Notes: generated by a model not told the origin, from the sequence alone. DNA of 48,555 bases from Alphaproteobacteria bacterium (GCA_009782315.1 WRJH01000002.1:1-48555), one strand, 5' to 3'. Shown: positions 4,133-33,051, counted from the stretch's first letter. Numbers and translations are program-made.

Positions 4133-4138
4133 GGTTTT

Positions 4139-10930: not shown

Positions 10931-10966
10931 AGGCACTGGGCACTAGTAACTAGTGCCTAGTCCCTG
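10931..10966. repeat. Palindromic 7-nt-period array (GGCACTA family) downstream of pnp
   Basis: aggcact gggcact agtaact agtgcct agtccct, self-complementary around ACTAGT. Confidence 0.7.
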
Positions 10967-10990
10967 TGAAGCGACCGAAAGGAGCAAGCG

Positions 10991-11290
10991 ATGGACATGA
11001 AAGCATTGATGGAGCAGGCAAAGGGTCTGCAAGCGAAAGTCGCCGCGGCCCAGGAATCGTTGGGCCAGACGACGGTAAAGGGCATCGCCGCGGGTGGGCT
11101 GGCCATTGTCGAAATGTCCGGCAAATACGACCTGGTCAAACTGACTTTGTCGCCGGATTTGATGAAAGAGGACGTCGACACCGCGACCGGAATCATCGCC
11201 GCGGCGTTCGGCGACGCAAAAGCCAAGGCCGACGCGACGATAGACAAGGTAATGTCGGCGGCCACCGCCGGAATGCCGATGCCAAATTAA
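10991..11290 (+). CDS. ybaB: Nucleoid-associated protein YbaB/EbfC
   Basis: 99 aa, RBS GAAAGGAG. M..LM.QA..LQ.K....Q..L......G.AGGG.V.V...G......L.I.P.L...D.. is the typical YbaB pattern. Confidence 0.85.
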   Translation: MDMKALMEQAKGLQAKVAAAQESLGQTTVKGIAAGGLAIVEMSGKYDLVKLTLSPDLMKEDVDTATGIIAAAFGDAKAKADATIDKVMSAATAGMPMPN

Positions 11291-11385
11291 ATCTAATAAC
11301 GCATCTGCTTGCGATTTGCTTTGGTCATGTATATCAAATACACTCCCGCCGCAAATCGCAGCGCATCTGCATCATTATCTTTAAT

Positions 11386-11413
11386 TTGATTTTTTCCGTA
11401 TACTTGATAATAT
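11386..11413 (+). promoter_or_regulatory. Candidate promoter TTGATT-16-TAATAT for the tRNA-Val locus
   Basis: TTGATT 11386-11391, TAATAT 11408-11413. The disrupted tRNA copy starts 10 nt downstream. Confidence 0.4.
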
Positions 11414-11423
11414 GCATCAGTTC

Positions 11424-11600
11424 GGGTGATTAGCTCAGTTGGTAGAGCGTCTGGTTTACATCCAGCAGGTCGGCGGTTCGCCCGTCTCGCAAATTTACGC
11501 AAAGCGTAAATTTGTGCGAGCCGAGGTTGAAAACCACGGCGAACACGAGACGGAGCGCCACGGCGCAGCGAAGCGGAGACGGGCGAGCCGAAATTTTATA
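11424..11600 (+). pseudogene. Disrupted tRNA-Val-like copy directly upstream of intact tRNA-Val
   Basis: 11424-11480 is identical to the intact gene through the T-loop TTCG, except for acceptor bases 3-4 (GGGTGAT vs GGACGAT). A 105-nt insert follows (11481-11585), bounded by inverted repeats CCCGTCTC/GAGACGGG. Then comes AGCC and no 3' acceptor strand. Confidence 0.6.
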
Positions 11601-11676
11601 GGACGATTAGCTCAGTTGGTAGAGCGTCTGGTTTACATCCAGCAGGTCGGCGGTTCGAGCCCGTCATCGTCCACCA
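11601..11676 (+). tRNA. tRNA-Val (anticodon TAC)
   Basis: GGACGATTAGCTCAGTTGGTAGAGCGTCTGGTTTACATCCAGCAGGTCGGCGGTTCGAGCCCGTCATCGTCCACCA. Acceptor GGACGAT/ATCGTCC, anticodon loop TTTACAT, encoded CCA. Confidence 0.9.
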
Positions 11677-11683
11677 AAAATCA

Positions 11684-11710
11684 AACGGCCCCTGCGGCCG
11701 TTTTATTTTT
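11684..11710 (+). terminator. Intrinsic terminator after tRNA-Val
   Basis: AACGGCC-CCTG-CGGCCGTT followed by TTATTTTT. Confidence 0.7.
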
Positions 11711-11741
11711 GGTTTATTATTATCGTTATAATGGACAAATT

Positions 11742-12164
11742 CTAGTCAAACTCGCCGGGAATGATTTCGCCGCTTTCCGTAACCGTGAAATACGGATCGC
11801 CCAGTTTCAAAATCTCGTCTTTTGAATATGTATGCGTCAATTTACACGGTGTCGGCGTGTCGGACGGGCCCCATTCTCCGTTGCCCAAATGTTTATTTTT
11901 GTAATGAAACCACTGTTTGCCATTGTTCCAAAATGCGCCGCTGTGATCGCCTTCGTATCTGGCGCCGCGTTCCGACGCGACCCTTTCGTAATCAAGCGTA
12001 AAGCCCGCGCCGCCCGCCGCGCTTGCCCAAGAATCCGTATAAACAAAAATATATTCATGCTCACCGCATGCCAAATCAACCGCCTTTACCGGAAAATCAT
12101 TGTGCGCGCCGCCGCCCGAGCAAGCGCACAGAAACACCGCCAAAAGCAACACATGTTTTTTCAT
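11742..12164 (-). CDS. Lipoprotein, possibly MliC-family lysozyme inhibitor
   Basis: 140 aa with lipobox LAVFLCAC-S. ACGEHEYIFVY..ASERGARYEGD..GAFWNNGKQ..C resembles the remembered MliC pattern (Y.C.., SGARY, FW.KG, C). Confidence 0.5.
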   Translation of the reverse strand: MKKHVLLLAVFLCACSGGGAHNDFPVKAVDLACGEHEYIFVYTDSWASAAGGAGFTLDYERVASERGARYEGDHSGAFWNNGKQWFHYKNKHLGNGEWGPSDTPTPCKLTHTYSKDEILKLGDPYFTVTESGEIIPGEFD

Positions 12165-13208: not shown

Positions 13209-14366
13209 CTATTGGTTTGTTTCAAACAAATCAAGATAGTCCTTGTAAACCCATTTTTGTCCATAGACCGAATCACCTAATTTTATTGGATATAATATCC
13301 CCATACCAACCATACGCTCTATCAATTTATAGGCGCCTTTCGGTGTCATCCGCGTCCATTTGATGATGTCGGCAATCCCGGCTATTGGAACGCCGTATAG
13401 TTTTTCAAGCACCGTCATTGTGGATGCGGCTGATGTTTTGCCCAGCTTTGCTATCTTTGCAATATCGCGTTCGTGCAAGCTTGTTATTCCAGCGCAAGTT
13501 TGTATTGCAGACCCTGCGGTTTGTACAACACCTTCCAAGAAAAAATCCAACCATTCTTCAACTTTGCCTTCGTGGTAACCATCTAATTTTTCATAGTACA
13601 ATTTCTTGTGTTTGTTGAAAAACGATGACAAATACAATACTGGCATATTCAGTAGTTTGTTTTGCCACAAGAACATGGTTATAAGCATGCGTCCGGTACG
13701 TCCGTTTCCATCATTGAACGGATGGATTGTTTCAAATTGTGCGTGCAATAATCCCGCTTTGACCAAAGGTTGGTATTCATTGCTGTAATGAACAAATTTT
13801 TCTAAATCGCCAAGCGCCGGGATTACCTCTGTCGGTGGCGGTGGAACGAATTGCGCGTCTTCCGGTTTAGTGCCGGCAATCCAATTTTGCGATTTTCTGA
13901 ATTCACCGGGATACGCATGCTGGGTCGCGCGCGCGCCAATCATTAACTCTTTATGTAGCTCGCAAACAAATCGTAAAGAAAACGGGAATTCTTTCGCGCG
14001 TTTCAGACCATAATTAAGGGCGTCTATATAATATACGATATCGTTGACATCCGCCGGGATATTTGAACCAGGTTCTTCGTTTTCATGTTCAATCGCATCC
14101 ATCATTGTAGCATTTGTGCCTTCTATGTTGCTTGACGACGAAGCGTCTTTCAAAACGAACATCTTCAAAAAACAGTCCTTGTCCGGCAGACGTTCGGTAA
14201 TACCGTCCAGTTTGCCGATAACATGAATCGCGGCGGTGTGTTTCAGTTGCAACGCGTTACTGAACTCGAATGGCACATGCGGTGGAAAAGGACGCGGAAT
14301 AAATGCGTTGTATCCATGGGGTTGACGGACGTAATCGCCAATGATAATTTTGTCTTTTTTTGACAT
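13209..14366 (-). CDS. Fic-family protein (putative AMPylase), class II with N-terminal inhibitory motif and C-terminal wHTH-like region
   Basis: 385 aa. Fic motif HPFNDGNGRTGR; upstream S-SNI-EG fits the [ST]xxxE[GN] inhibitory helix; Fic_N-like YNAFIPRPFPP. The gene is visibly AT-richer than its neighbours. Confidence 0.85.
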   Translation of the reverse strand: MSKKDKIIIGDYVRQPHGYNAFIPRPFPPHVPFEFSNALQLKHTAAIHVIGKLDGITERLPDKDCFLKMFVLKDASSSSNIEGTNATMMDAIEHENEEPGSNIPADVNDIVYYIDALNYGLKRAKEFPFSLRFVCELHKELMIGARATQHAYPGEFRKSQNWIAGTKPEDAQFVPPPPTEVIPALGDLEKFVHYSNEYQPLVKAGLLHAQFETIHPFNDGNGRTGRMLITMFLWQNKLLNMPVLYLSSFFNKHKKLYYEKLDGYHEGKVEEWLDFFLEGVVQTAGSAIQTCAGITSLHERDIAKIAKLGKTSAASTMTVLEKLYGVPIAGIADIIKWTRMTPKGAYKLIERMVGMGILYPIKLGDSVYGQKWVYKDYLDLFETNQ

Positions 14367-15785: not shown

Positions 15786-15810
15786 CCCGGCATTGCCGGG
15801 ATTTATTTTT
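15786..15810. terminator. Bidirectional terminator between the ASKHA gene and rlmN
   Basis: CCCGGC-ATT-GCCGGG followed by ATTTATTTTT. Confidence 0.65.
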
Positions 15811-16876
15811 GGCCAAGGCGCAATTGACCGCATGCGGAACCGATATCCGCGCCGCGCGTCCGCCGGATGCGCGTATGAATTCCATTTTCTTTCAATATAT
15901 CTTGGAACCTGTGCACCGCATTGTTTGACGGCGCGGCGAATTCCCCCCTTTCCGCAACCGCATTCCATGGGATTAGATTTACCATAACATTCTTGTCTTT
16001 TAACAGCGCGGAAAGTTCGGCGGCTTGTTCCGGCGAATCGTTCGTGCCGGCCAATAATATATATTCAATCATCAACTGGCGGCCGGTTTTATCGCTGTGC
16101 GCGAATGCCGCGTCCAGAACGTCAGTAATCGGATAGCGATTGTTGACAGGCATCAGGCGTCCGCGTAATTCGTCGTTTGGCGCGTGCAACGAAATCGCCA
16201 GATTCACCGGCCGGCCCCATTCGATTAATTCATTAATTCCGGGAACAATGCCGCAAGTCGATACCGTCATGCGGCGCCATGAAATGCCAAGCTTTTCATT
16301 CGCCGTTTCCAAAAATCCGCGCAGGGCTCCTGTATTCTGCAAAGGTTCGCCCGTGCCCATAACCACAATATGCGACACGTCGCCATTAGGACGTGAAGCG
16401 TAAGGCGTAAGGCGTGAAGCGTGAAGTGTCCATTGCGCAACCAATACTTGGGAAATCATTTCGTTTGATGTCAGGTTTCTTTTCAGGCCCAGCAACGTCG
16501 ATGCGCAGAATTTACAGCCCATTGCGCACCCGGCCTGGGACGATACGCACACGCTGTTGCCGTAACTGGTGCGCATAAGGACGGTTTCGATAATATCGTG
16601 TTCGTGATTCGTGTTCGTGGTTCGCAACAGGAATTTAGTTGTCTGGCCGTCGGCCGATTCCAACTTTTGTTCAATAGTGCAGGGCAGGGTTTGCGCAAGT
16701 CCATCCAAGTCGCCCCGCAGATTTTCGGGCAGGTTTTTCATAACCGAAAAATCAGGCGCGCCGCGCCAAAGCCATTCCAGAATTTGTTTCGCCCGGAATT
16801 TCGGCTGGCCCATGCCGACGACAAACTGTTCCAGTTCAGGCAGAGTCATGTTAAAGAGAATTGGCTTGGTTGTCAT
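15803..16876 (-). CDS. rlmN: 23S rRNA/tRNA adenine-C2 methyltransferase RlmN (radical SAM)
   Basis: 357 aa. FRAKQILEWL; radical SAM cluster motif GCAMGCKFCAS; VVMGTGEPL; IPWN. It contains an in-frame heptamer array at 16392-16428. Confidence 0.9.
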   Translation of the reverse strand: MTTKPILFNMTLPELEQFVVGMGQPKFRAKQILEWLWRGAPDFSVMKNLPENLRGDLDGLAQTLPCTIEQKLESADGQTTKFLLRTTNTNHEHDIIETVLMRTSYGNSVCVSSQAGCAMGCKFCASTLLGLKRNLTSNEMISQVLVAQWTLHASRLTPYASRPNGDVSHIVVMGTGEPLQNTGALRGFLETANEKLGISWRRMTVSTCGIVPGINELIEWGRPVNLAISLHAPNDELRGRLMPVNNRYPITDVLDAAFAHSDKTGRQLMIEYILLAGTNDSPEQAAELSALLKDKNVMVNLIPWNAVAERGEFAAPSNNAVHRFQDILKENGIHTRIRRTRGADIGSACGQLRLGQK

Positions 16877-16957
16877 AATAGGTAATAGGTATTAGGTAAT
16901 AGGTATTAGGTATTAGGTAACATACTTCATACCTATTACCTAATACCTAATACCTAA
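16877..16957. repeat. Inverted pair of 7-nt-period arrays (GGTAATA/GGTATTA) between rlmN and surA-like
   Basis: aggtaat aggtatt aggtaat aggtatt aggtatt aggtaa ..catacttcat.. acctatt acctaat acctaat acc. Confidence 0.85.
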
Positions 16958-17808
16958 ATTGCCCCCTTGTAATTCTGGTCATTTATCACAATCACCGCTT
17001 TGCGGCGCAGTTGTTTCAATTGCTGGTCGCCGATGAACATCGCCCGCTTGAACACCGCGTTCTGTTTTATTATATCGTCCAGTTCGCCGTATTCCTTCAT
17101 CTTTTGCCGTTTGCATACCAGCAAGACCGACCGGTCGGGCCCGCGCGACGACCAGGCAAGCAGCGGCAGGTCCGCAATCCGTCCGCGCGTTTCCACAGAC
17201 AATTCGAATTCCGGCGCAGTGATGCGCGTCGGCGCGCCGCCCAAATTCCACGCAATCTTTTCGGCCGTATCGCAATCTTTGGCCGGGGTTAATTTTTCGG
17301 CGACCGATTCCGGAATATCCGCAAGCCGCACAAGAGTCACGTCTATGGGAAGGCCGCGGCTGCGCGAAAGTTCCGCGATTTCGTCCTTTATATCCCGGTC
17401 GGTCACATTCACCGCCGGCATTATCGTGCGGCCGATAATCATCTGCCATGCGATATGCGATTTCGTCGCAAAGCGCAACATTTCCATTCCAACAGAATCA
17501 AGGCCCGAAACATCAAACCCGCGCGATTTCATATTGTCGATTTCCTTCTTAACTTCGGCGTCGGACGGGTTGATTTGTATCTGGGCCGCAAAGCCCAGCT
17601 TTATGTTGTCGTCTATGATATTGGAAAGGGCGCGCAGACGGTTGTCCGTTCCCGAATCGCCCTGTATATTCATCAGTTTCACCCGCGCGGTTATATCGCG
17701 GTCCGTTATCGGCGCGCCGTTGACGCTTGCTATAACCGATGCGCATTGCGCAACACAAGGCATAAGGCATAAGGCATAAGGCATAAGAAATTTGCAAATT
17801 GTTTTCAT
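16954..17808 (-). CDS. SurA-N-domain-like periplasmic chaperone (no obvious PPIase domain)
   Basis: 284 aa with a signal peptide. VNGAPITDRDI..R..L and the position immediately downstream of lptD (TAATG overlap) fit the lptD-surA arrangement. The signal peptide is encoded by a GGCATAA array. Confidence 0.6.
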   Translation of the reverse strand: MKTICKFLMPYALCLMPCVAQCASVIASVNGAPITDRDITARVKLMNIQGDSGTDNRLRALSNIIDDNIKLGFAAQIQINPSDAEVKKEIDNMKSRGFDVSGLDSVGMEMLRFATKSHIAWQMIIGRTIMPAVNVTDRDIKDEIAELSRSRGLPIDVTLVRLADIPESVAEKLTPAKDCDTAEKIAWNLGGAPTRITAPEFELSVETRGRIADLPLLAWSSRGPDRSVLLVCKRQKMKEYGELDDIIKQNAVFKRAMFIGDQQLKQLRRKAVIVINDQNYKGAI

Positions 17809-19874
17809 TATTTTTTTCCCTCTACTAATTTAAGGCTGAACGACAGTTTGAAAGTCGTGTTTCCGACGTAATTTTCGCTTTCGTCGTCCAGGTTGGTCCT
17901 TATCGCGCCGTCGCGCAGATATTCGAACCCTATCATATAGCACGGATGTTCGTAATAAAGCCCTGCATTCTGACGCTGTATCCGTTCGTCGGTGATATTG
18001 TAAATCGTGCGCGTGCGAAGATTCCACCGTTCCGTAAGCCCCAGGCCGAATCCGCCGACTATTTCGTTGTTGCGGCTGTTTTCCGTAAGCGCGTCGTCCA
18101 GCTGGACCGCGATTATATATCCCGCTTCGACATAATTTCTTTTGCCCAGGCGGGCCGTGGATTCAATATGGCGCAGTGCCAGGTTGGAATTCGCGAAACG
18201 CGCGCGGTTGTTTATCATAAACCAATCCTTATACTCGGCCGACAGCCGCCCGACAAAGTCCGACCCGCCGTTATGGTATCCGGAATTCGGGTCCAAATCT
18301 TTCGGTTTGGAAAAGTCGTAAGTCTGTCCGGCAAACCCGGATACGGATATGCCGCCGCGCGAAAAAGCGGACCAGCCAAGCCCGTAATCCGCATAATCGC
18401 CGTTCACCCAAAGGTCGTATCCGGAAAGCCGGTTGTCCGAAAAAAGCGTCGCGTCCGACAAGACCGAACCGGAAGAATCTATGTTCGCAAAGGCCGGCGT
18501 TTCCAAAACGCGCATGGCCGTGTACCGCACCCGCGGTTCTATGACATGGGTCCAGTCCCGTCGTTCGTTATTTACCAGGGGCAGCGCCCACTGGGCGTAT
18601 CCCGACGGCAGAAAGCGCGCCCGGGACCCGGAAAATCCAACCTCTCCGTCCAGCATGTCCGTGTTGTTGAAATAATAAAAATCGTACCGCGACGACGCCG
18701 CGAGAGTAACCCGCTGGCCGCCCCATATCGTCCACGGCGATGTGACGGTAGCAGACCCCAGCATTCTTTGCATATTGCCCGCCGTTTCGGAATTGTATAT
18801 GCCAATCATATCGCCCATAAAGGACACGTACGTATCGCCGTATACGGGCGCGGTTTGATACACGCCGTGAATATTCGGCAGTATGTCGCCGGAAATGCTG
18901 GACGATTGGACGCCGGGCATTACGCGCAGTTCCTGGAACACGTGCGCGTCTGTGCGGACGTATCCGCTGTCCGCAAAAACTTCCATCCGGGCGCCCGAAT
19001 CAAGAAACGGCTGGGCGTCATAGAACCCGTAATGCTGCAAATAAGTCTTGTCGGACGCACGCTGTAAAAATAATTTCGCGCGGGCGTGTTCGCCCAGTTC
19101 AATCAAATCTTCGTTGAACACGTGCCAGCGGTCGTTGCCCGCCCGGTTGCTGGTGTACGACCCCGTCGTCCGGAAACTGGAATGATGCGCGTTCAGCCGG
19201 TGCTCCAACTGCCATATCGGATTTTCCGCGGTAAGATACCCGGGCGTAAAGGTAAAATCGTGAGTGTCCGAAACCACAATGTAAAGCGGCAGGTTAACCT
19301 GGGTCCCCATGTTGTTCGTCGTGTTCACATAGGGAATCAGGAATCCGGATTTGCGCTTTATGCTGGGGTCCGGATACGACAGGTACGGCGACCAGAATAT
19401 CGGAACATCATAGGCCCAGAACACCGCGTTATAGAATTCCATCATGCGCGCGTCGGCGTCGTGGCGCATGCGGTCGGCCGACACCTCCCACGCGTTCACA
19501 TTGGTGTCGCAGTCGCCGCACGCCGTGTACACGACGCTTTGGGCAAGCGTTATGTTATCCTGTTTTTCGACGGATGCGGCCGAAAAGTGCGTGCGGGTCC
19601 CCAGCCATACTTCGACACGCTGTCCGCCCGCATGCGCGCCGCGATTGTCCATATACGCGTCAAGCAGGGTCATGCGCTTGCCGTCCGACGTTTCCATTTT
19701 TGTGTCGCCGGCCGTCTTTATGGATTGCGTTTTGCGGTCGAATTCTATCCTGTCGGCCGTGATGGTTTTGTCGGAGCTAGTGTCAAGAGAGAGAGCGTGA
19801 GCCGAACTGAAAACTAATAACGAAGAACCAAGAACCAGCGTCATACGAAAGAAAATCGGAAAATGGTATTTCAT
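17808..19874 (-). CDS. lptD: LPS-assembly outer membrane protein LptD
   Basis: 688 aa with a signal peptide. N-terminal OstA-like ADRIEFD; RKSGFLIPY motif; large beta-barrel region. Confidence 0.85.
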   Translation of the reverse strand: MKYHFPIFFRMTLVLGSSLLVFSSAHALSLDTSSDKTITADRIEFDRKTQSIKTAGDTKMETSDGKRMTLLDAYMDNRGAHAGGQRVEVWLGTRTHFSAASVEKQDNITLAQSVVYTACGDCDTNVNAWEVSADRMRHDADARMMEFYNAVFWAYDVPIFWSPYLSYPDPSIKRKSGFLIPYVNTTNNMGTQVNLPLYIVVSDTHDFTFTPGYLTAENPIWQLEHRLNAHHSSFRTTGSYTSNRAGNDRWHVFNEDLIELGEHARAKLFLQRASDKTYLQHYGFYDAQPFLDSGARMEVFADSGYVRTDAHVFQELRVMPGVQSSSISGDILPNIHGVYQTAPVYGDTYVSFMGDMIGIYNSETAGNMQRMLGSATVTSPWTIWGGQRVTLAASSRYDFYYFNNTDMLDGEVGFSGSRARFLPSGYAQWALPLVNNERRDWTHVIEPRVRYTAMRVLETPAFANIDSSGSVLSDATLFSDNRLSGYDLWVNGDYADYGLGWSAFSRGGISVSGFAGQTYDFSKPKDLDPNSGYHNGGSDFVGRLSAEYKDWFMINNRARFANSNLALRHIESTARLGKRNYVEAGYIIAVQLDDALTENSRNNEIVGGFGLGLTERWNLRTRTIYNITDERIQRQNAGLYYEHPCYMIGFEYLRDGAIRTNLDDESENYVGNTTFKLSFSLKLVEGKK

Positions 19875-19907
19875 GTTCAGTTCTTAGTTTTTAGTTATTA
19901 GTTTTTT
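19807..19907. repeat. Imperfect inverted heptamer arrays spanning the lptG-stop / lptD-start junction
   Basis: ctgaaaactaataacgaagaaccaagaaccag (encodes the LptD signal peptide LVLGSSLLVFS) versus gttcagttcttagtttttagttattag (encodes the LptG C-terminus). About 17 of 21 positions are complementary in the best segment. Confidence 0.65.
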
Positions 19908-20969
19908 ATCCGAAAGTATGAAAAACAGAACTATGACGATTGCGGCCTGGCCGCCGGCAATCGCGAAAAAACCGGAAAGCGTGACGGCCAGGTCGGACAA
20001 AATCATAAACGCGGCCATCGCGGCGGCCATGCCAAAAGTCGCCATAGGCGCCGCCATATTAAACCCGGACCGGCGAAGCAGCGACGATTTCAAAAGCATG
20101 GTCATGGCGATAAGCGCCAAAATCAAATTCATAAAAGGACCCAAAAACCGCGTCGATAATTCGGTAATAATACGCTTGCGGTTGTTATCGCTGAACGTTT
20201 CAAGATGCGTCGCGTCATGGACCAGATGCGCGCTTGAAAGTCTGCTTACGCGGAAGACGTTTCCCTGCTCCCTGTCCGCCAGATTCATGTCCATATCCAT
20301 GGAATCGAACGTGCCGACCGCAAAATTGTCGTCGCGGAACTGGACGCTGCCAAGGGTCATGACCATGGATAGCCCGCGGCTGGTATGAATCAATTTTCCA
20401 TTATCCGCAGAAATTGTCATCTGGTTCCTTTGGTCGCGGTTGTCGTACAGCATCAGTTTGGACAAATCGTTGCCGGCCACGTTTTCGACAAACACCACAA
20501 GACCGCGCGCCATTTGGGTGAACGTCGCCTCTTGCAGTTTCAAATGCGCCAGACCGTACCGCATCTCCCACTGGGTGTCGTAAAACTTTACCTGGGTTAT
20601 AGGCACAACAAACATGTTCATCGCGAAATGTATGGCCGTAACGGCGCCCGCAAACCAAAGCGCCGGCCGCGCAATCTGCATAGGGGACAGGCCCGCCGCC
20701 GCCGCGACCGTTATTTCGCGGTCGGATATAAGCCTGCTGTACAGGAACACCACGGATATAAATACCGAAAACGGCATGATGATTGAAATTATAAGCGGCA
20801 GCATCATCGCCGTCAGCCCCAGAAATCCGAAAATGCCGATGCCGTACTGTATAAGGAATTTCAGCATGGTAAGTATGTGCATCATCCACGCCAGGCCGGC
20901 CAGCACCAGCAAAAGCATTATGAAAAATACCAAAATTTGGCGCGCAAAATAAATCGACAGGGTTTTCAT
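19884..20969 (-). CDS. lptG: LPS export ABC permease, LptF/LptG (YjgP/YjgQ) family, probably LptG
   Basis: Internal ATG 20969 (MKTLSIYFARQIL) of ORF 19884-21101. It has six-TM YjgP/YjgQ-like topology and lies directly upstream of lptD. The ORF extension 20970-21101 is translated repeat DNA. Confidence 0.75.
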   Translation of the reverse strand: MKTLSIYFARQILVFFIMLLLVLAGLAWMMHILTMLKFLIQYGIGIFGFLGLTAMMLPLIISIIMPFSVFISVVFLYSRLISDREITVAAAAGLSPMQIARPALWFAGAVTAIHFAMNMFVVPITQVKFYDTQWEMRYGLAHLKLQEATFTQMARGLVVFVENVAGNDLSKLMLYDNRDQRNQMTISADNGKLIHTSRGLSMVMTLGSVQFRDDNFAVGTFDSMDMDMNLADREQGNVFRVSRLSSAHLVHDATHLETFSDNNRKRIITELSTRFLGPFMNLILALIAMTMLLKSSLLRRSGFNMAAPMATFGMAAAMAAFMILSDLAVTLSGFFAIAGGQAAIVIVLFFILSDKKLITKN

Positions 20970-21103
20970 TCGTGGTCCGTGTTCGTGGTTCGTGGTCGTG
21001 GTCCGGGGTATTCTAGTACAATGGATTGCAATATCAAACTTTTTTTCTTGACCCAAACCATGAACCACGACCACGAGCCACCAGCACGAACCACCAACCA
21101 CGA
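20969..21103. repeat. Inverted pair of 7-nt-period arrays (TCGTGGT / ACCACGA) in the lptG-nusA divergent region
   Basis: ttcgtggt ccgtgt tcgtggt tcgtgg tcgtggt ccgg ... aaccatg aaccacg accacga gccacc agcacg aaccacc aaccacga. Confidence 0.85.
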
Positions 21104-21109
21104 TTTTCC

Positions 21110-21138
21110 TTGCAATCCGCCGATTCGTGATTCATAAT
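21110..21138 (+). promoter_or_regulatory. Candidate promoter TTGCAA-17-CATAAT for nusA
   Basis: TTGCAA 21110-21115, CATAAT 21133-21138. Confidence 0.45.
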
Positions 21139-21165
21139 GCCGTTGTTCTTTAATAAATAAATTAG

Positions 21166-21194
21166 AGAGCGGGTTCATAAGAACCCGCTCTTTT
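21166..21194 (+). terminator. Terminator-like hairpin in the nusA leader (possible attenuator)
   Basis: AGAGCGGGTTC-ATAA-GAACCCGCTCT followed by TTTT. It lies between the candidate promoter and the RBS AAAAGGAG (about 21199-21206). Confidence 0.45.
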
Positions 21195-21214
21195 AAGTAA
21201 AAAGGAGTTATAAC

Positions 21215-22789
21215 GTGTCATTCGAATCCATGCCCAGACAGGACTTGCTGCTTGCAATCGAATCACTTGCCGCCGAAAAGATAATCGACCGCGAAATCGT
21301 CATAGAATCGCTGGAAGCGGCAATCGCCAAAATCGCCGGACAAAAATACGGGGCCGAATTCAACATAGTGGCGGATATCGACCGCAAAAACGGCGCAATT
21401 CACGTAAAGCGCCTGTTCGACGTTGTCGACCCCGCGGATCTGGGCGAAGACGAGCTGGGCGAGCCGGTGCAATTCAACAGCGACACCATGCTGACCGTAA
21501 CAGAGGCGAAAAAATATTCGAAAGACCCGAAAATCGGCGACGTCGTGTCCGACCCGCTGCCGGAACCGGAATTCGGCCGCATGGCTTTCCAAACCGCAAA
21601 GCAAATCATGACCGCGCGCGTCCGCGACGCGGAAAAAGGACGCCAGTTCGAAGAATTCAAAGACAATATCGGCGACATAGTCAGCGGCATGGTCAAACGC
21701 ATAGAATTCGGAAACGTGTTCGTCGACATAAACGGCAAAGCCGAAGGTTATATAAAATCGTCCGAACTTATCCCCGGCGAAAAACTGCAGCCGGGCGACC
21801 GCGTGCGCGCCCTGGTCATGGACGTCGCGCGTTCCAACAGCGGCCCGCAGATTTTCCTGACCCGCACGCATCCGATGTTCATGGAAAAACTGTTCATGCA
21901 GGAAGTGCCGGAAATATACGAAGGCATAATAAAAATCAAGTCCGTCGCCCGCGCGCCGGGCAGCCACGCAAAGATTGCCGTCACCACAGACGACCCGTCA
22001 ATCGACGCCGTCGGCATGACGGTCGGCATGAAAGGCACCCGCATACAGCCGGTCATCAACGAATGCCACGGTGAAAAAATCGACGTGATACTTTATTCCG
22101 AAGACCCCGCCGTATTCATCGTCAATTCCATGCAGCCGGCAAAGGTTCAGAAGATAATCGTCGACGAAGACACGCGAACCGCCGCAGTCGTCGTGAACGA
22201 AGACCAGCAGTCTTTGGCTATCGGCCGCCGCGGACAGAACGTGCGTCTGGCGTCCCAGCTGACCGGATGGAACATCGACGTCATGAACGAAATGGAAGAA
22301 CAGGAAAAACGCGCCAAAGAATTCAAGGAAAAGACCGAACTGTTCACCAAAGGGCTGGACGTCGACGAAATGATTGCGCACCTGCTTATCACCGAAGGGT
22401 TCAGGACAATCGAAGAAATCGCGTACGTCGATTCGGCCGAACTTTCCAGAATCGAAGGGTTCGACGCCGATTTGGCCGCCGAATTGCAGGGCCGCGCCAA
22501 AGCCCATATCGAAAAGATGGAACAGGAATACAAGGATACCGGGCATGCGCTTGGCATGGCGGACGATTTGCTGTTCTTTGATTTCGTAAAGCGTCCGACA
22601 ATACTTGCGCTGGGGCGCGCGGGCGTGCGCTCTTTATCCGACCTGGCCGATTTGGCGTCAGACGAGCTGGTCGAAATACTGGGCGAAGACAATATGTCCG
22701 AACGCCTGGCCGGCCGCATAGTCATGAAGGCGCGCGAAGTCGCGTACGGAATAGGGGATAGCGGGGAAGAGGAAGAAGAACAGGAATAA
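21215..22789 (+). CDS. nusA: Transcription termination/antitermination factor NusA
   Basis: 524 aa, GTG start. S1 region IVSGMVKRIEFGNVFVDI; KH region AIGRRGQNVRLASQLTGWNIDV; C-terminal acidic repeats. Confidence 0.95.
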   Translation: MSFESMPRQDLLLAIESLAAEKIIDREIVIESLEAAIAKIAGQKYGAEFNIVADIDRKNGAIHVKRLFDVVDPADLGEDELGEPVQFNSDTMLTVTEAKKYSKDPKIGDVVSDPLPEPEFGRMAFQTAKQIMTARVRDAEKGRQFEEFKDNIGDIVSGMVKRIEFGNVFVDINGKAEGYIKSSELIPGEKLQPGDRVRALVMDVARSNSGPQIFLTRTHPMFMEKLFMQEVPEIYEGIIKIKSVARAPGSHAKIAVTTDDPSIDAVGMTVGMKGTRIQPVINECHGEKIDVILYSEDPAVFIVNSMQPAKVQKIIVDEDTRTAAVVVNEDQQSLAIGRRGQNVRLASQLTGWNIDVMNEMEEQEKRAKEFKEKTELFTKGLDVDEMIAHLLITEGFRTIEEIAYVDSAELSRIEGFDADLAAELQGRAKAHIEKMEQEYKDTGHALGMADDLLFFDFVKRPTILALGRAGVRSLSDLADLASDELVEILGEDNMSERLAGRIVMKAREVAYGIGDSGEEEEEQE

Positions 22790-22791
22790 TT

Positions 22792-22870
22792 CGTTACCCG
22801 TGAACCGTAACCCGTAGTCCGTAAATAAATTACGGATAACGGATAACGGATAACGGGTTACGGCGAACGA
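22792..22870. repeat. Inverted pair of 7-nt-period arrays (CGTAACC / ACGGATA) between nusA and infB
   Basis: cgttacc cgtgaac cgtaacc cgtagtc cgtaaat aa attacgg ataacgg ataacgg ataacgg gttacgg. Confidence 0.85.
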
Positions 22871-22881
22871 AGTGAGCGAAT

Positions 22882-25257
22882 ATGGCAACATTAACACTTA
22901 AAAAATCTGTCGACACGGGCGCGGTTCAAAGCGCAAAGGGCGCGGTCATATCCGTAGAGCGCCGGCGCAAAATCGAAATCCCGGGCGCGCGCACCCTGCG
23001 GGAAGAGCCGAAATCCCCCGCCCCCCAAAGCGCCGCGGACGAAAAGCTGCGCGCCATATTAGAGGCGAACAAAGAACGCGAAGCCCAGCGCCAGAAACAA
23101 CAGGCCGAAGACGACGCCCTGCGCGCGCGCCGCGATGCGGAAATCGCCCGCGAAGAGGAGGAATATGCCGCCGTAAAGGAAAAACTGAACGCGAAAGCCG
23201 CCGTGGAAGAAGATGACAGGAATCAGGAATCGGGAACCAGGAATCAGTCGTTCGGCCGCCCGTCTTTCGCCGCGCCCAAAGCGGCCGACGACGATGAAAA
23301 CGATGCGCGGAAAAACAAAGGCAAAAAGGGAAGCGTTAAAAAAGATTTTTCCAAAGGCAAGATTTCCATACGCGACATAGTCATGTCTTCGGACGACGAG
23401 GGCGATTCTGAAATGGGAATCCGCGCGGGCGGGCACCGCCGCAGCGACGCGTCCTTGAAACGATTCCGCGACAAGGCGCGCCAGATGTTCGCGGCCCCGC
23501 AAAAAGTATCGCGCGAAGTCGTTATCGGCGATTCCATCACGGTCAAGGAACTGGCCGCCGCCATGGCCGAAAAGGTCGGCGCGGTTGTCAAAAAACTGAT
23601 GGAAATGGGAATGATGGCGTCGCAGAACCAGTCGCTGGACGCGGATACCGCGGAACTTGTCGCAACCGAATTCGGCGCGGCTGTCAAACGCGTCGTAACA
23701 GCGCCGCACGCCGAATTGCTTTCCCGCGCGGCAAACCCGGACAATATGAAACCCCGCGCGCCGGTCGTTACCGTCGTGGGCCATGTCGACCATGGAAAGA
23801 CTTCCCTTTTGGACGCATTTCGCGGCGCGAACGTGGTCGCAAAGGAAGCCGGCGGAATAACACAGCATATCGCCGCGTACGAAGAAAAATCGGCATCCGG
23901 AAAAATGATAACTTTCCTGGACACACCCGGGCACGAAACCTTTTCCGCAATGCGCGCGCGCGGCGCAAATATGGCCGACATCGTCGTCCTGGTCGTCGCC
24001 GCGAACGATTCCATAATGCCGCAGACTGTCGAAGCAATCAGTCATATCCGCGCCGCAAAGGTTCCGTTCATTGTCGCGATTAATAAAATAGATTTGTTTG
24101 ATGCCGACGCGCAGCGCGTCAAAACCGACCTGTTGCGGCACGAGGTTCAGGTAGAGCAAATGGGCGGCGACGTTCAATCGGTCGAGATTTCCGCGACCAA
24201 AAAAATCAACCTGGACAAACTGGAAGACGCGATTCTGGTCCAGGCCGAACTGATGGATTTAAAGGCCGACCCGGACATGCCGGCCGTTGCCACCGTCGTG
24301 GAGGCAAAAATGGAAAAAGGCCTGGGGCCGACGGCGACAGTGCTGGTTCAACAGGGACGGCTTTCCGTCGGCGACGTGTTCGTCGTTGGCGAAACATGGG
24401 GCCGCGTGCGCGGACTGGTAAATTCGAACGGCGTGCGGGTGAAATCCGCGGGGCCTTCGCAACCCGTCATAGTTTTGGGTCTGGAAACGGTTCCGAACGC
24501 GGGCGACGAATTGCGCGGTCTGGAATCCGAATCCCAAGCGCGCGAAGTGGTGTCGTACAGACAGCATAAAAAACAAACGGAAGCCAACGCCGTCAAACGG
24601 TCGTCCTTGGAAGAATTGTTCGCAAAAAGAGACGAGACGAAAAAACTGACCCTGCCGGTCGTTCTGCGCGCGGATGTCCAGGGTTCGGTCGAAGCCATAC
24701 GCGACATGCTGAAAGGCGTCCAAAGCGACAAGGCCGCAATAGATTTGATTTCCGCAGGCGTCGGCCAGATTACCGAAGGCGACGTACGGCTGGCCGCCGC
24801 GTCTAACGCAATCATAATCGCATTCAATGTCCGCGCCGATTCCGCAGTGCGCGAGGTGGCCAAATCATTGGGCGCGGATATTCGCTATCATTCCATCGTA
24901 TATCGCATTACGGACGAACTGAAAGACGTTCTGACCGGAAAGCTGGCGCCGGAACGCCGCGAAAACTTTATCGGATACGCCGACATTATCGCATTGTTCA
25001 CAGTGGGCAAGGGCGTGCGTGTGGCGGGATGCCGCGTGACCGAGGGCGTGATAAAACGCGACGCCTTTGTCCGCTTGCTTCGCGACAACGTCGTCATATA
25101 CGACGGCAAAATCGGCGTACTGAAACGCGAAAAGAACGAAGTAAAGGAAGTCGGCGTCGGCACGGAATTCGGTATGTCGTTCGACAAGTACAACGACCTG
25201 CGCGAAGGGGATCGCGTCGAATGCTATGAAGTCGAGAATATTAAGGCAACATTATAA
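22882..25257 (+). CDS. infB: Translation initiation factor IF-2
   Basis: 791 aa. G1 [13 protein letters not shown]3 DTPGHE, G4 NKID, with a charged N-terminal region. Confidence 0.95.
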
Positions 25258-25258
25258 G

Positions 25259-25359
25259 TCATAAGGCATAGGGCATAAGGCATAACAAAGTCAGAGATTG
25301 CTGAAATAAATTTCAACAATCGCAAAACTAATATGCCTTATGCCCTATGCCTTATGACT
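25259..25359. repeat. Inverted pair of GGCATAR arrays between convergent infB and rsmE
   Basis: gtcataaggcatagggcataaggcataac ... atatgccttatgccctatgccttatgac. The 44-nt loop has its own small hairpin. The right arm encodes the RsmE C-terminus. Confidence 0.85.
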
Positions 25360-26055
25360 TAGAGCGGCGATAGCCGCGACGGCGGCGGTTTCGGCGCGAA
25401 GGACTGTCGGGCCCAATGATATGCCGGTCGCGTCGGCGTTGTCCAGCGCGGCGAATTCCCTTTCCGAAAAACCGCCTTCGGGGCCTATCAAAACGACTGT
25501 GTCGTTTTGGCGTGAGACGTAAGGCGTAAGACGTGAAGCGTTATTATCAACCGTTCGTTCGTCGGCGAAAAACAATTCGGCTTTCGGTTCACGGCTTTCG
25601 GTTTTCGATAAGAATTCATCAAACTTTACCGGTTCCGCCAATTCCGGCACGCTATTCCGGCCGGATTGTTCCGCCGATTCTATTATGATTTTTCGGACCC
25701 GGTCCCATTTGACGCGATGTTCGTTTACCCGTTCCGTTATCACCGGCTGTAATTTCCGGACGCCCGTCTGCGTCGCCATCGACAGCATCTCTTCCAGCCG
25801 CGATTGTTTTATCGGCGCGAACGCAAGCGTCAAGTCGTTCGACGGGTCAAGGCGGCCGGAAGGCATAAGGCACAGGGCATAAGGCATATTATCTTGTGTG
25901 GCAAGTTTGGCGTGAAATTCTTGCCCATTATTGAAAACCAAAAATTCGTCCGTGCGCATGACCCGCGATAAATAATGTTCGGTGTCTTTCGATATTGAAA
26001 AACTTTTCCCGGTTTCCAGGTTTTCATTCAAATAAATTCTTGGTATATTTTTCAT
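25345..26055 (-). CDS. rsmE: 16S rRNA (uracil1498-N3)-methyltransferase RsmE
   Basis: 236 aa. IPRIYL..HYLSRVMR N-terminal PUA-like region; C-terminal LIGPEGGFSEREF. It carries two in-frame heptamer arrays (25511-25540, 25861-25888). Confidence 0.85.
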   Translation of the reverse strand: MKNIPRIYLNENLETGKSFSISKDTEHYLSRVMRTDEFLVFNNGQEFHAKLATQDNMPYALCLMPSGRLDPSNDLTLAFAPIKQSRLEEMLSMATQTGVRKLQPVITERVNEHRVKWDRVRKIIIESAEQSGRNSVPELAEPVKFDEFLSKTESREPKAELFFADERTVDNNASRLTPYVSRQNDTVVLIGPEGGFSEREFAALDNADATGISLGPTVLRAETAAVAAIAALSHKA

Positions 26056-26060
26056 AATTT

Positions 26061-26092
26061 TATGCCTTATGCCCTATGCCTTATGCCCTTAT
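26061..26092. repeat. TTATGCC-type heptamer array upstream of rsmE
   Basis: tatgccttatgccctatgccttatgccctta. It is inverted relative to the array at 25861-25888 inside rsmE. Confidence 0.75.
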
Positions 26093-26112: not shown

Positions 26113-28347
26113 ATGGCTGCAAAGTTCAATATTTTATCCGTATCCGGCAAAGGCAAGGGCTTTGGTATTTTCAGGTCCAAATCGTACGCGTCCAAAGACC
26201 ATGAATTTCTGAAAATGCAGCTGGTGTTCTGGAAATACCGCTGGCTGTTTTTCGCCTGGGTGTTCGCCATACTTGCGTTCGGGGCCGCGTTCGCCGCCGA
26301 ACACATATTCCGGTACGGTTGGAATCCCGCCACAATCAAATGGCTGTCGGTTTATTTCGACCAGATTATTCATACGTTCGGCCTGCGCGTGTTCGCGGAA
26401 ATTCCGGCATGGTTTTCAAGGGCCGCTTTGCGTCCGGATTTTCCGGTCGTGTTTCCGCTGGTTGTGATAATCGCGTACAACCTGGTCACCATTCCGCTGT
26501 TCACCGAAAAATTCAACCCGCACGGCGAAGATATGTGGGACAGCAGTTCTTCACGCAAAGCGAACGAGGCGGACGTGGCGAAAATGGGCCGGTACGGCGG
26601 TCTGTTCAAAGGCTTTATAATCGTTCTGGGCAAATTCAAAAAGAAGTACCTGATGCTGGACGAAACTTTGTCCGCGCTGTGCGTGGCGCCCCCCGGAATC
26701 GGTAAGACGACCGGAATTGTCCAGCCCACAATCTATAAATGCAACACCGTGTCCATGATTATCAACGACCCGAAGCCGGAACTGGACGATTTGACGTCCG
26801 GATACCGCGCGACTTTGGGACCGGTGTTCATCATGAACTGGGCCGGCCAGGACGAACCGGACAAGGGCGTATATTTTCCGTCTTGGAATCCTTTGTCGCC
26901 GGAACACGTTCCGTTTTTACAGGAAAAGCGCGATTTGTACATAGATTCCATCTGCGCGACGCTGGTCGCGGACAAGGCGTCAAGCACCGCCGACCCGCAC
27001 TGGACCATATCCGGTCGCGCGGCGTTGTCCGGCCTGATCCAATTCATAGTGTCCAAAATAGAGCGGGCGAAATGGAACGATTATTTCAAGGCGCGCCTTT
27101 CCGCCGGGACTTTCGACCGGACGGACGCGGCGCTGCTTGACGAACGGTACGCGATGATGGGGGGCGACCCGAACGCGGATGCGGCGCGGCACATGCTGCA
27201 AACCGGGGCGCTGTCCGCCAATAATTATGTTCCCGTCGGAACCTGGGCCAATATTCCGCCCAGCTGGCTGGGCAAAGAGGCGTCGCTGTCCATGATTCTG
27301 GACTGGTTGAACACCAGCCAAATCAGAATCGCCGAAGAATTGGAGACAAGGCGGAAACAGGGCGACCAGATGGTAATGATGGCCGACCCCATGAAAGACC
27401 TGTTCCAGGATGCCGTCGAAGAGGCAAGGCAATACGGATACGCGCACCGTTCCATACTTGAACTGACGCAATTGGCCAATACCCCGGACAAGGAACGCGG
27501 GTCGATACTTTCGACGGTTATGGCCGGACTTGGCATTTTCCGAAACGCGGCCGTGCGAAACCGCACCAGCCATTCCGATTTCCATTTTTCCGACCTGCGC
27601 GGAATGAAGAATCCGAAAACGGGCAAATTCGAACCCGTGACCGTGTACCTGTCCATAAACCTGGTCGATGCGGAAGCTTTGAATCCCATAACCGCGATAT
27701 TCGTCGAACTGATGTCGTCGTTTTTGCTTACCAACAAACCGAACTCTGTACACGCCGGCCAGACATTGGGGCCGACGCCGACCCTGTTCGTCCTTGACGA
27801 AATGCCGAAAATGCAGAAGATGGAGGCGGTCATAAAAGGACCCGACCTGGGCCGCGGACAACAGGTGTCGTATCTGATAATCGGACAGGATTTGGCCCAA
27901 ATACGGGAAAAATACGGTCCCGACGCGTCCGAGGCCATAATGTCCACCACCGCCGCGAAAATAGTGTTCCGCCAGAACAATTACGAAACCGCCCAGAAAT
28001 TCAGCGTTATAATGGGCGACAAGAAAAAAGTAAAAGAAAAAAAGGACGACAAAGGCGTTATAAAGGAAGAAAAAGAAGCCGCAGAGCCGCTGTTTACTCC
28101 GATGGATATAATGAAAATGGATTCGAACAAAGTACTTGTCATCATGCAGGGTTGGCCCAACCGTCCAATAGAGGCCGACGTACCGTATTATTTCAAGGAC
28201 CCGGAACTGACCGGTCTTTCGAAGATACCGCGCGCGTCGGCGTTGCCGGAATCACTTATCCCGGCGCATCATGCGGCGATGGGATATCCGGGCACGCCGA
28301 AGATTTATGACAATAAAACAAAGACGACCAGAGAATTAAAGTCGTAA
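26113..28347 (+). CDS. Type IV secretion coupling protein, VirD4/TraG family
   Basis: 744 aa with N-terminal TM helices. Walker A CVAPPGIGKTTG; Walker B-like TLFVLDEMPKM; IIGQDLAQIREKYG resembles the conserved Q-rich motif of T4CPs. Confidence 0.8.
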   Translation: MAAKFNILSVSGKGKGFGIFRSKSYASKDHEFLKMQLVFWKYRWLFFAWVFAILAFGAAFAAEHIFRYGWNPATIKWLSVYFDQIIHTFGLRVFAEIPAWFSRAALRPDFPVVFPLVVIIAYNLVTIPLFTEKFNPHGEDMWDSSSSRKANEADVAKMGRYGGLFKGFIIVLGKFKKKYLMLDETLSALCVAPPGIGKTTGIVQPTIYKCNTVSMIINDPKPELDDLTSGYRATLGPVFIMNWAGQDEPDKGVYFPSWNPLSPEHVPFLQEKRDLYIDSICATLVADKASSTADPHWTISGRAALSGLIQFIVSKIERAKWNDYFKARLSAGTFDRTDAALLDERYAMMGGDPNADAARHMLQTGALSANNYVPVGTWANIPPSWLGKEASLSMILDWLNTSQIRIAEELETRRKQGDQMVMMADPMKDLFQDAVEEARQYGYAHRSILELTQLANTPDKERGSILSTVMAGLGIFRNAAVRNRTSHSDFHFSDLRGMKNPKTGKFEPVTVYLSINLVDAEALNPITAIFVELMSSFLLTNKPNSVHAGQTLGPTPTLFVLDEMPKMQKMEAVIKGPDLGRGQQVSYLIIGQDLAQIREKYGPDASEAIMSTTAAKIVFRQNNYETAQKFSVIMGDKKKVKEKKDDKGVIKEEKEAAEPLFTPMDIMKMDSNKVLVIMQGWPNRPIEADVPYYFKDPELTGLSKIPRASALPESLIPAHHAAMGYPGTPKIYDNKTKTTRELKS

Positions 28348-30455: not shown

Positions 30456-31213
30456 GAGTCGAATTTTTCTTTGCCGACGATAATCGTTCCATCGGAAAAT
30501 TCCGGCCTTGCCTGGGTTTTGATTTCCGTCCGCCAAAAGACGTCCCCGGTGCCGCCCGCTATCGCATACAAGTAACCGTCCGTGCCGACCACATAAGAAA
30601 CGCCCGTCCGGACAATGAACGGCGTGCCGGTGCCGACGCCCGAACACCAAACTTTCGCGCCCGTGTCCGAGTTGAGTTTGCAGAAAGAACCGCCCAATCC
30701 CCCCGCATAGACAAACCGGTCGCCGTCCGTCATTACGGGCGCGACGACGTCAAGTATGCTGGACCCGCCGGTCATCGCGCTGGATTTGAAAATGTCCGCG
30801 ACCCACACCAGGTTGCGCGTAGCCCTATCTATCTTTACGACTTCGCCGGTGGACAGTCCGGCGAATATGTATTTGTCCGTCACCGTCGGCCGTCTTTCGC
30901 CGGAAACATGGGCGGTCGTCGGAAAACCGGAAAATATCCGAATCCGTTCGTCCCCGGATATCCGCCATACTACATTGTTGGAATCCTGTATGTATTCCGC
31001 GGTCCGCACCCCCGGCCGCGATATTTCTTTCAGCGCGTTTTCCGGTACCGGTTTGTCCAGAACCACGATTCCGCCGGTATCGAACACGGAATGCCGTTCG
31101 CCCGGAAGTACCGGGTCCTTGGTGGCGCAGGCGCAAAGCGCTATAAGGCATAGGGCATAAGGCATAGGGCATATGCGCTTTGTAATCATTGAAAGTATTT
31201 TCATCAATCTCAT
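30434..31213 (-). CDS. PQQ-like beta-propeller lipoprotein, BamB-like (short)
   Basis: 259 aa with lipobox LIALCAC-A. Repeated G.v.a.d..tG...W motifs (KIDRATRNLVW, LNSDTGAKVW, AIAGGTGDVFW). It lies downstream of a yfgM-like gene. Confidence 0.6.
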   Translation of the reverse strand: MRLMKILSMITKRICPMPYALCLIALCACATKDPVLPGERHSVFDTGGIVVLDKPVPENALKEISRPGVRTAEYIQDSNNVVWRISGDERIRIFSGFPTTAHVSGERRPTVTDKYIFAGLSTGEVVKIDRATRNLVWVADIFKSSAMTGGSSILDVVAPVMTDGDRFVYAGGLGGSFCKLNSDTGAKVWCSGVGTGTPFIVRTGVSYVVGTDGYLYAIAGGTGDVFWRTEIKTQARPEFSDGTIIVGKEKFDSITGDMR

Positions 31214-31242
31214 ACTTTTATGCCTTATGCCCTATGCCTTGT
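31141..31242. repeat. Inverted GGCATAR arrays straddling the bamB-like start codon
   Basis: ctataaggcatagggcataaggcatagggcata (encodes the signal peptide PMPYALCL) and ttttatgccttatgccctatgccttg. There are 22 consecutive complementary nt, and the start codon 31211-31213 lies in the loop. Confidence 0.85.
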
Positions 31243-32955: not shown

Positions 32956-33051
32956 GGCATAGGGCATAAGGCATAAATAATATGAGATTGATTAAACTAG
33001 TTTCAATAAGCACAAAACTGATATGCCTTATGCCCTATGCCTTATGCCTTG
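32949..33051. repeat. Inverted GGCATAR arrays straddling the porin-like start codon
   Basis: gtcataaggcatagggcataaggcataaat ... atatgccttatgccctatgccttatgccttg. The 24-nt core ataaggcatagggcataaggcata is the same as at 25261 and 31143. The right arm encodes CLMPYALCLA. Confidence 0.85.

Follow-up and report, generated by a model that had tools for sequence, protein, structure and literature searches.

Two unrelated rRNA methyltransferase genes, rlmN and rsmE, in a 48,555-nt stretch of alphaproteobacterial DNA (GCA_009782315.1, WRJH01000002.1:1-48555) contain tandem arrays of 7-nt units that are read in frame within intact coding sequences. The arrays are pieces of the dispersed heptanucleotide tandem-repeat families of this genome, which are found mainly between genes as hairpin-forming inverted pairs, and inside the two enzymes they are probably repeat-derived passenger segments tolerated at permissive sites. 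The whole stretch is called the window below; it covers 48.5 kb of the genome, and genome-wide statements rest on it. The host is an uncultured gut bacterium related to the clade around Candidatus Enterousia, and the best species-level relative in a scan of GTDB genomes has an RlmN only 74% identical. Comparisons were made with related loci, including a syntenic relative of the window (L081), through an alignment of 29 RlmN orthologs and a similar one for RsmE. Structures are AlphaFold (AF2) models built from these alignments, quoted with their predicted local distance difference test (pLDDT) scores.

Arrays within rlmN and rsmE

The two genes and their arrays, as delimited with Tandem Repeats Finder (TRF) where so marked, are as follows.

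15803-16876, minus strand: rlmN, intact, 357 aa; Pfam RlmN_N and Radical_SAM; PDB RlmN 6fz6, E 2.6e-77
16596-16624, minus strand: rlmN array 1 (TRF), ACGAACA/ACGAACC family, encoding RTTNTNHEHD, aa 85-94
16392-16426, minus strand: rlmN array 2, cgtgaag cgtaagg cgtaagg cgtgaag cgtgaag on the window strand
25345-26055, minus strand: rsmE, intact, 236 aa; Pfam Methyltrans_RNA PF04452, 2.5e-43; PDB RsmE 4j3c, E 5e-29
26060-26092, minus strand: array of GGCATAA type in the 5' leader of rsmE, its end 4 nt ahead of the start codon
25860-25888, minus strand: rsmE region-1 array, GGCATAR-type, sense TATGCCT TATGCCC TGTGCCT TATGCCTT
25576-25607, minus strand: rsmE region-3 array (TRF), CGAAAGC-like, encoding SKTESREPKAE, aa 150-160
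25511-25538, then cg (to 25540), minus strand: rsmE region-2 array, cgtgaga cgtaagg cgtaaga cgtgaag on the window strand

RlmN has the RlmN_N domain and radical-SAM core of its family, and the cysteines of its CX3CX2C cluster, together with the two other catalytic ones (C110, C117, C121, C124 and C349 in all), are invariant in the alignment. RsmE has the PUA-like N-terminal domain and the SPOUT domain with its GPEGG knot motif, here IGPEGG; G191, P192, E193, G194 and G195 are invariant in orthologs and the AF2 model has a pLDDT of 90.8. An earlier note on this DNA had proposed that repeat-derived DNA is read in frame inside intact enzymes. The full-length genes with all their motifs bear this out and rule out frameshifted pseudogenes. 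The note's array sequences read as given, save that the rlmN array ends at 16426 and not 16428; the two arrays it described are present, and it missed those at 25576-25607 in rsmE and 16596-16624 in rlmN. Its description of the enzymes as essential was overstated, since E. coli survives deletion of rlmN or of rsmE.

The repeated nature of these segments is clear from their counts. The sequence CGTRARRCGTRARR has seven matches in the window against 0.02 expected. The 30-mer of rsmE region 2 differs from rlmN array 2 at three positions (27/30), where 0 matches would be expected, and the two arrays carry their variant units in the same order. The 29-mer of rsmE region 1 has seven further copies in the window at up to three mismatches, mostly non-coding, and it shares an internal AGGGCAT variant with the arms of the dispersed element described below, one arm of which it equals. 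The CGTRARR family has only two copies in the window, with one more in L081. The TRF copies at 16392, 25511 and 25860 have a period of 7 and 3.4-5 units, and so count as heptamer simple sequence repeats (SSRs) on a threshold of at least three units.

On the sense strand, rlmN array 2 reads CTTCACG CTTCACG CCTTACG CCTTACG CTTCACG and encodes LHASRLTPYASR, residues 151-162 of RlmN, while the region-2 array of rsmE reads CG CTTCACG TCTTACG CCTTACG TCTCACG and encodes NASRLTPYVSR, residues 172-182 of RsmE. In the predicted translations the peptides spanning the arrays are WTLHASRLTPYASRPNGD and NNASRLTPYVSRQND. The near identity noticed earlier is therefore confirmed, and so is the common frame, which is mostly a matter of arithmetic. 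A heptamer array runs through each of the three frames within 21 nt, so that any of them yields one and the same cyclic heptapeptide, and in GGCATAA, CGTAAGG and CGTGAAG the forward strand carries stop codons and the reverse strand is open. Because 7 and 3 are coprime and the stops lie on one strand, the shared strand and the shared repeat peptide are forced; the exact register is the sole free feature of the match, a 1-in-3 coincidence. The repeat peptides are PYA(S/L)RLT from CCTTACG/CTTCACG and PYALCLM from CCTTATG. As CCTTACG and CCTTATG are one transition apart, the two ‘different’ rsmE arrays (GGCATAR and CGTRARR) are related. The unit itself is widespread: a metagenome scan with CCTTACGCCTTACGC recovered more than 120 contigs of 36-72% GC, none of them relatives, and contigs L089, L128 and L133 mix CCTTACG-type and CCTTATG units in one array. 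A protein search with (PYASRLT)n returned just five short open reading frames (ORFs) at E<10, so that long versions of the peptide are rare.

The position of rlmN array 2 agrees with the suggestion that it occupies a variable loop just before VVMGTGEPL: across the 29 orthologs the site lies between W-x-L-R and KPNGD. In the AF2 model residues 151-162 form the end of a helix (137-155) and then coil (156-166), with a pLDDT of 68-71 that falls below 50 at residues 161-163. The loop has nine residues in the window and 5-9 in relatives. It is 4 aa longer than in the array-free L001, where the loop is shorter and of unrelated sequence, and the segment is five residues longer than in E. coli RlmN. 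The region-2 array of RsmE lies in a stretch (171-185) modelled as coil, with a mean pLDDT of 57 for residues 171-180, and the spacing from DER to IGPEGG is 22 residues against a baseline of 18 (+4 aa). rlmN array 1 lengthens a beta-hairpin turn by a net 4 aa (pLDDT 76-78); region 3 of RsmE adds 6 aa relative to the shortest orthologs at a helix end and loop (pLDDT 84).

Region 1 of RsmE is different in kind. It encodes NMPYALCLMPS (residues 56-66), which the model places in a beta-strand (57-65) of the PUA-like domain with a pLDDT of 96, and MPYALCLMPS aligns without gaps to PDB RsmE 4j3c, adding no residues. On the model, then, a repeat array here encodes a structural element. Three orthologs of 56-66% protein identity (L082, L083 and L085) have the peptide as well. 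At the DNA level a heptamer array is recognisable in L083 and L085, and L082 has similar codons with no array detected; the orthologs retain the rare CCT and CTT codons. Thus the GGCATAR-type array reported earlier as a second insert in RsmE is real and adds no length, and the idea that such residues are lineage-specific did not survive for MPYALCLMPS, its conservation in orthologs being what the earlier note had itself named as counting against it. On the models, the low-pLDDT coils of rlmN array 2 and RsmE region 2 speak for permissive sites and may be the surface loops that the note had asked about; RsmE region 1 is a confident strand.

The heptamer population of the window

Period 7 dominates the short tandem repeats of the window. 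A simple period scan found 26 arrays of period 7 and 0, 1, 0 and 0 of periods 5, 6, 8 and 9; TRF gave ~45 period-7 rows, of which 42 arrays were retained for a census of locations. At least 12 unit families are present, e.g. GGCATAA, AGAGCAT, TAATAGG, CCGTTTA, AATTAGC, AGTTGTT, TTCGTGG and CGTAACC. In the census the density of arrays per kb is 4.7 in intergenic DNA, 1.9 in the first 40 codons and 0.30 in internal coding DNA, a 15-fold difference between the extremes, and this gradient is the pattern expected from purifying selection. The richness is patchy among the related loci fetched: period-7 arrays per 10 kb number 5.4 in the window, 4.7 in L026 and 0.8 in L081, and the ~20 Candidatus Enterousia-type loci have essentially none (~0). 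An Rfam scan of the window found three tRNAs only, none overlapping an array.

Fourteen arrays form inverted pairs, 0-171 nt apart, and six of these pairs, when folded, gave stems of ~30 bp with z-scores of -7.7 to -13. The pairs most relevant here, with the internal coding arrays of other genes, are listed below.

25254-25361: palindromic element of ~105 nt, GGCATAA arms and a 46-nt spacer, between convergent infB and rsmE
16876-16957: inverted pair of TAATAGG/CCTATTA heptamers, lying between the stop of the surA-like gene and the rlmN start
20969-21103: inverted pair TTCGTGG/AACCACG, upstream of lptF, with a promoter-like site in the spacer
1143-1173: internal in-frame array of RecF, residues 79-89
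23217-23247: internal in-frame array of IF-2, residues 112-122
35477-35510: internal in-frame array of Der, residues 173-184, between two GTPase domains
44124-44153: internal in-frame array of an RluD-like pseudouridine synthase, residues 69-79, before the catalytic domain

The element at 25254-25361 overlaps the stop codons of both infB and rsmE; its 30-nt arms are 100% complementary and it folds at -61.8 kcal/mol (z -13). It is one of three GGCATAA-pair copies of a single ~105-nt element with a conserved spacer of ~45 nt, the others lying at 31143-31240 and 32947-33050. A further arm precedes rsmE itself: the array in its 5' leader is complementary to the region-1 array (27 nt, 96%), and the two are predicted to form a 29-bp stem around the start codon (z -8.6). 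The gene is bracketed by four GGCATAA-type arms (25255-84, 25332-61, 25860-88 and 26060-92), among which alternative pairings could form. The neighbour of rsmE at 26113-28347 encodes a type IV coupling protein of the VirD4/TraG type and is syntenic in both L081 and L083; a Fic-domain protein is also encoded in the window (13209-14366).

The unit family of rlmN array 1 recurs in the inverted pair upstream of lptF; this array is common to L206, P0004 and P0005 and is absent from L081. At the TAATAGG hairpin (16872-16960) the rlmN start codon abuts one arm and the other arm contains the surA-like stop codon, an arrangement that suggests possible translational coupling of the two genes. The same intergenic site has other heptamer pairs in L206 (CAGTTGT, 2095-2195) and L207 (AAATCAC, 9925-10010); in L081 it has no pair and is only 24 nt long.

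The hairpins do not look like simple terminators: four of the six folded pairs have loops of 44-66 nt, the pairs at 16872-16960 and 4136-4230 have loops of 8-18 nt, and a scan for consensus terminators picked none. Sigma-70-like promoters occur in the spacers of some inverted pairs, for instance TTGATA-16-TAGAAT upstream of lptF (20969-21103) and TTTGCA-18-TATAAT upstream of der (34806-34990); the arms of these pairs flank a promoter and do not lie within one transcript. In many units one strand carries a Shine-Dalgarno-like AAGG, GAGG or TAGG; the opposite strand resembles the CCUUA 3' end of 16S rRNA. Within the array at 4985-5017 stands AACTGAT, which is the TAACTGA unit of Beggiatoaceae in rotated form, and L083 has (CTGGGGA)n at 3701-3731, i.e. 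(CCCCAGT)n on the opposite strand, which is the unit of the cyanobacterial (Calothrix) repeat STRR1.

Arrays near gene starts form a group of their own. Those at 17757-17787, 31143-31173, 33022-33050, 37038-37069, 38301-38324, 43476-43508 and 41558-41586 encode the hydrophobic core of putative signal or lipoprotein signal peptides, some of the ORF starts being uncertain. In the SurA-like protein the putative core is MKTICKFLMPYALCLMPCVAQCA; in L206 and L207 the signal region of its orthologs is encoded by different tandem arrays, and in L081 by none. BamB, LpoB, g37087 (lipobox LGAC), g32982 and g43414 also have array-encoded putative signal peptides. In BamB and g32982 the element spacer and one arm encode a shared N-terminus, MRLxKxxSxxTKxICxMPYALCL, because of which the ~105-nt GGCATAA element looks, on sequence, like a portable signal-peptide cassette. 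The Rfam tRNA genes at 599-669 (minus), 11431-11486 (plus) and 11601-11673 (plus) overlap mechanically listed ORFs, so that the ORFs 1-759 (in part), 10966-11433 and 11439-11825 are probably not genes, or are shorter.

Replacement, turnover and competing explanations

The arrays had been described as full-length insertions, and this part of the account has to be given up. None of them adds its own length (24-35 nt) to the protein, which makes plain insertion a poor description: the RlmN loop gains 4 aa relative to L001, RsmE region 2 gains 4 and MPYALCLMPS none. The ortholog alignment that the note called for supports a variable RlmN loop and shows arrays mostly replacing pre-existing length. 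Part of the adjustment can be seen in rlmN, where the window is without 15 nt that L081 has directly after the array (10447-10476, at window 16427-16441); the change from PNGDANNNDVSH to PNGDVSH indicates that loop length was readjusted next to the repeat.

The arrays differ in age. rlmN array 2 is identical at 34 of 35 nt in L081, with five units in both, between genes of 79% DNA and 83% protein identity. Decayed versions occupy the same loop in L207 (five units, 35 nt) and L206 (about one codon longer). In L026 (RlmN, 10001-11224) the loop contains a repeat-derived NEPPSLCALRPST, which occurs again at a second loop where P0004 and P0017 also carry inserts. At region 2 of RsmE each lineage has its own repeat: a CTTACG-type array in the window, arrays of GAACCCG in L082 and of CTTCATC in L085, a CCCCAGT-like array in L083, and in L084 a hairpin element of 33 nt.

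Several of these inserts share a right boundary, just before (Q/H)ND. In L084 (RsmE, 930-1664) the 33-nt hairpin element (SARGSHIMRPL) is in frame at both regions 1 and 2, and L084 and L085 have other arrays at the position of region 3. As different repeats occupy the same sites in each lineage, the RlmN loop and RsmE region 2 are recurrent hot spots, and the recurrence of arrays in the independent assemblies L081, L083 and L085 argues that they are real and not assembly artefacts. Permissive positions are also suggested by the Der and RluD-like arrays, which fall between Pfam domains.

We propose that copies of arrays, or short converted patches, ended up inside coding DNA and that selection purges nearly all of them. 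Survivors would be those at sites tolerating arbitrary sequence, or at sites whose original element the heptapeptide can replace; surface loops, domain linkers, the hydrophobic N-terminal region of signal peptides and one hydrophobic beta-strand would be places of this kind. The survivors would be restricted to the sole stop-free orientation, and would be translated as passenger peptides with little effect on fitness. Candidate routes of entry are copying or patch conversion followed by readjustment of loop length, or slippage in place.

Several observations weigh against so simple a view. The net change in length is 0 to +6 aa, so that the arrays largely fill positions that already existed. 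All 11 synonymous-capable codons of rlmN array 2 are identical in L081 against a background of 59% (P ~0.003), and they are rare codons in this genome; nucleotide conservation of the arrays thus exceeds that expected of a neutral passenger. Region 1 of RsmE, as modelled, is under protein-level selection and not merely tolerated, because a structured strand is retained across deep divergence. Another such point is the predicted 29-bp stem between the rsmE leader and region 1, which L083 and L085 do not share. Of the six proteins that have internal arrays, five are factors of translation or ribosome biogenesis, a class of 8 among ~42 genes overall (hypergeometric P 4e-4, with a classification made post hoc), which could reflect function or relaxed constraint. 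Finally, no target-site duplication is clear by eye at the ends of the ~105-nt elements, and no cognate transposase or REP-associated tyrosine transposase (RAYT) was seen in the window.

Some of these points would be accommodated if the heptamer hairpin elements were a renewable source both of protein segments (signal-peptide cores of envelope proteins, the RsmE beta-strand, loops of ribosome-biogenesis enzymes) and of regulatory structure. The nucleotide conservation and 5'-leader pairing would then reflect shared post-transcriptional control, and at fixed sites the unit sequence would turn over by slippage and hairpin-templated correction. We regard this as unlikely.

The first rival to passenger segments, also unlikely, is that the arrays are cis-acting RNA or DNA elements, either sites for a heptamer-binding factor or pairing partners controlling the translation or stability of ribosome-biogenesis mRNAs, with the peptide as a by-product. 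Conservation of rlmN array 2 beyond protein need, the predicted stem around the rsmE start codon and the clustering of internal arrays in translation factors would all follow, as would the abutment of arrays on start codons, which the TAACTGA repeats of Beggiatoaceae also show (PMC4679880). However, rlmN array 2 has no inverted partner within 1.3 kb, and the leader partner of rsmE is absent from L083 and L085, which keep the internal array. Unit sequences differ among lineages at the same site, no Rfam family matches, and the synonymous-codon test on rsmE region 1 is not significant (5/7 identical against a background of 0.40-0.61).

Replication slippage of chance proto-repeats in place, with heptamers merely the preferred unit of slippage, no copying and a convergent likeness of rlmN and rsmE, is quite improbable. 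Many bacteria have an excess of heptamer SSRs, for which a slippage tied to the footprint of the polymerase has been suggested (cited in PMC4692102); the many unrelated unit families of the window and the loops of ancestral length would suit such a process. It does not account for the variant-unit order that rlmN and rsmE share over 27/30 nt, nor for the AGGGCAT variant common to rsmE region 1 and the dispersed arms. Since 7-nt additions shift the frame, growth in place needs 21-nt steps or compensating deletions, whereas the observed net changes are +12, +12 and 0 nt.

There is very little to be said for contingency loci in which gain or loss of a 7-nt unit switches RlmN or RsmE on and off by phase variation. 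Unit length is not a multiple of 3, and loss of such rRNA methyltransferases can alter antibiotic susceptibility. The arrays are, however, short (4-5 units) and imperfect, those decayed in L206 and L207 sit in loops of similar length, and copy number, which should vary at a phase-variable SSR locus, is five rlmN units in L081 as in the window, although their DNA has diverged by 21%. Least credible of all is that the residues are ordinary ancestral protein with a coincidental DNA periodicity: MPYALCLMPS is indeed conserved in several orthologs with no added length, but chance expectation for the patterns is 0.00-0.02, the same 29-mer lies at seven other, mostly non-coding, places, and most RlmN and RsmE orthologs are unrelated at these positions.

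Comparison with known repeat systems

Passenger segments derived from heptamer arrays invite comparison with several known repeats. The Rickettsia palindromic elements (RPEs) are in-frame selfish repeats within protein-coding genes (PMC10969869), and the earlier note had likened the arrays to them. The comparison fits the outcome: in both cases members of dispersed repeat families are read in frame inside unrelated housekeeping enzymes with intact ORFs, at sites apparently compatible with the fold, in a host-associated alphaproteobacterium (PMC10969869). It does not fit the pieces. RPEs are whole palindromes of ~100-150 bp that add a peptide module of ~30-50 residues, whereas the coding arrays here are single arms of 24-35 nt, made of 7-nt units, that add 0-6 residues and in one case supply a core beta-strand. 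No sequence relationship is expected.

The intergenic ~105-nt elements, as distinct from the coding arrays, resemble transposable elements of the miniature inverted-repeat type (MITEs), repetitive extragenic palindromic (REP) sequences and bacterial interspersed mosaic elements (BIMEs) in being small, palindromic and dispersed, with inverted arms and a conserved spacer in three copies. They differ in that the arms are heptamer tandem arrays and that target-site duplications are not evident.

Closer in their unit are the heptanucleotide SSRs. An excess of heptamer SSRs and inverted heptamer pairs have been described in bacteria, among them the short tandemly repeated repetitive (STRR) sequences of Calothrix, GGGAATC in Xanthomonas (inverted pairs too) and GGGGAYT in Nostoc (PMC4692102). 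These share with the present arrays a 7-nt unit, about four units per array, many mostly intergenic loci and some stem-loop pairs (PMC4692102). The published arrays are reported to lie between genes, each genome having one or a few types of unit, whereas here at least 12 unit families occur in 48 kb and arrays lie inside conserved enzymes and putative signal peptides. The TAACTGA repeats of marine Beggiatoaceae, cyanobacteria and Bacteroidetes come in 2-6 copies, often directly upstream of start codons; stop codons limit their orientation within ORFs, where a few cases are reported and only the stop-free orientation is found (PMC4679880). Unlike the present arrays, those within ORFs mostly sit at the ends of proteins or in hypothetical ones, they are direct and do not form inverted pairs, and no recurrent hot spots in conserved enzymes have been described.

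Searches of a literature library gave no description of such arrays for the Enterousia-related clade. What appears to be new is the presence of arrays at internal, recurrent sites of conserved enzymes, together with an array-encoded beta-strand and the signal-peptide cases. The biology of heptanucleotide arrays has stood open ever since the first accounts of the cyanobacterial STRRs, and the present cases indicate that fixed positions in conserved enzymes are colonised repeatedly by the active repeat of each lineage and that repeats can turn into real structural parts of proteins, such as a beta-strand or the cores of putative signal peptides. There is a practical warning as well for work on metagenome-assembled genomes, where ORF starts, alignments and inference from indels are all distorted by arrays of this kind. 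Set beside the systems above, the arrays of rlmN and rsmE extend the notion of selfish DNA inside genes from the palindromic elements of Rickettsia to heptanucleotide tandem arrays.

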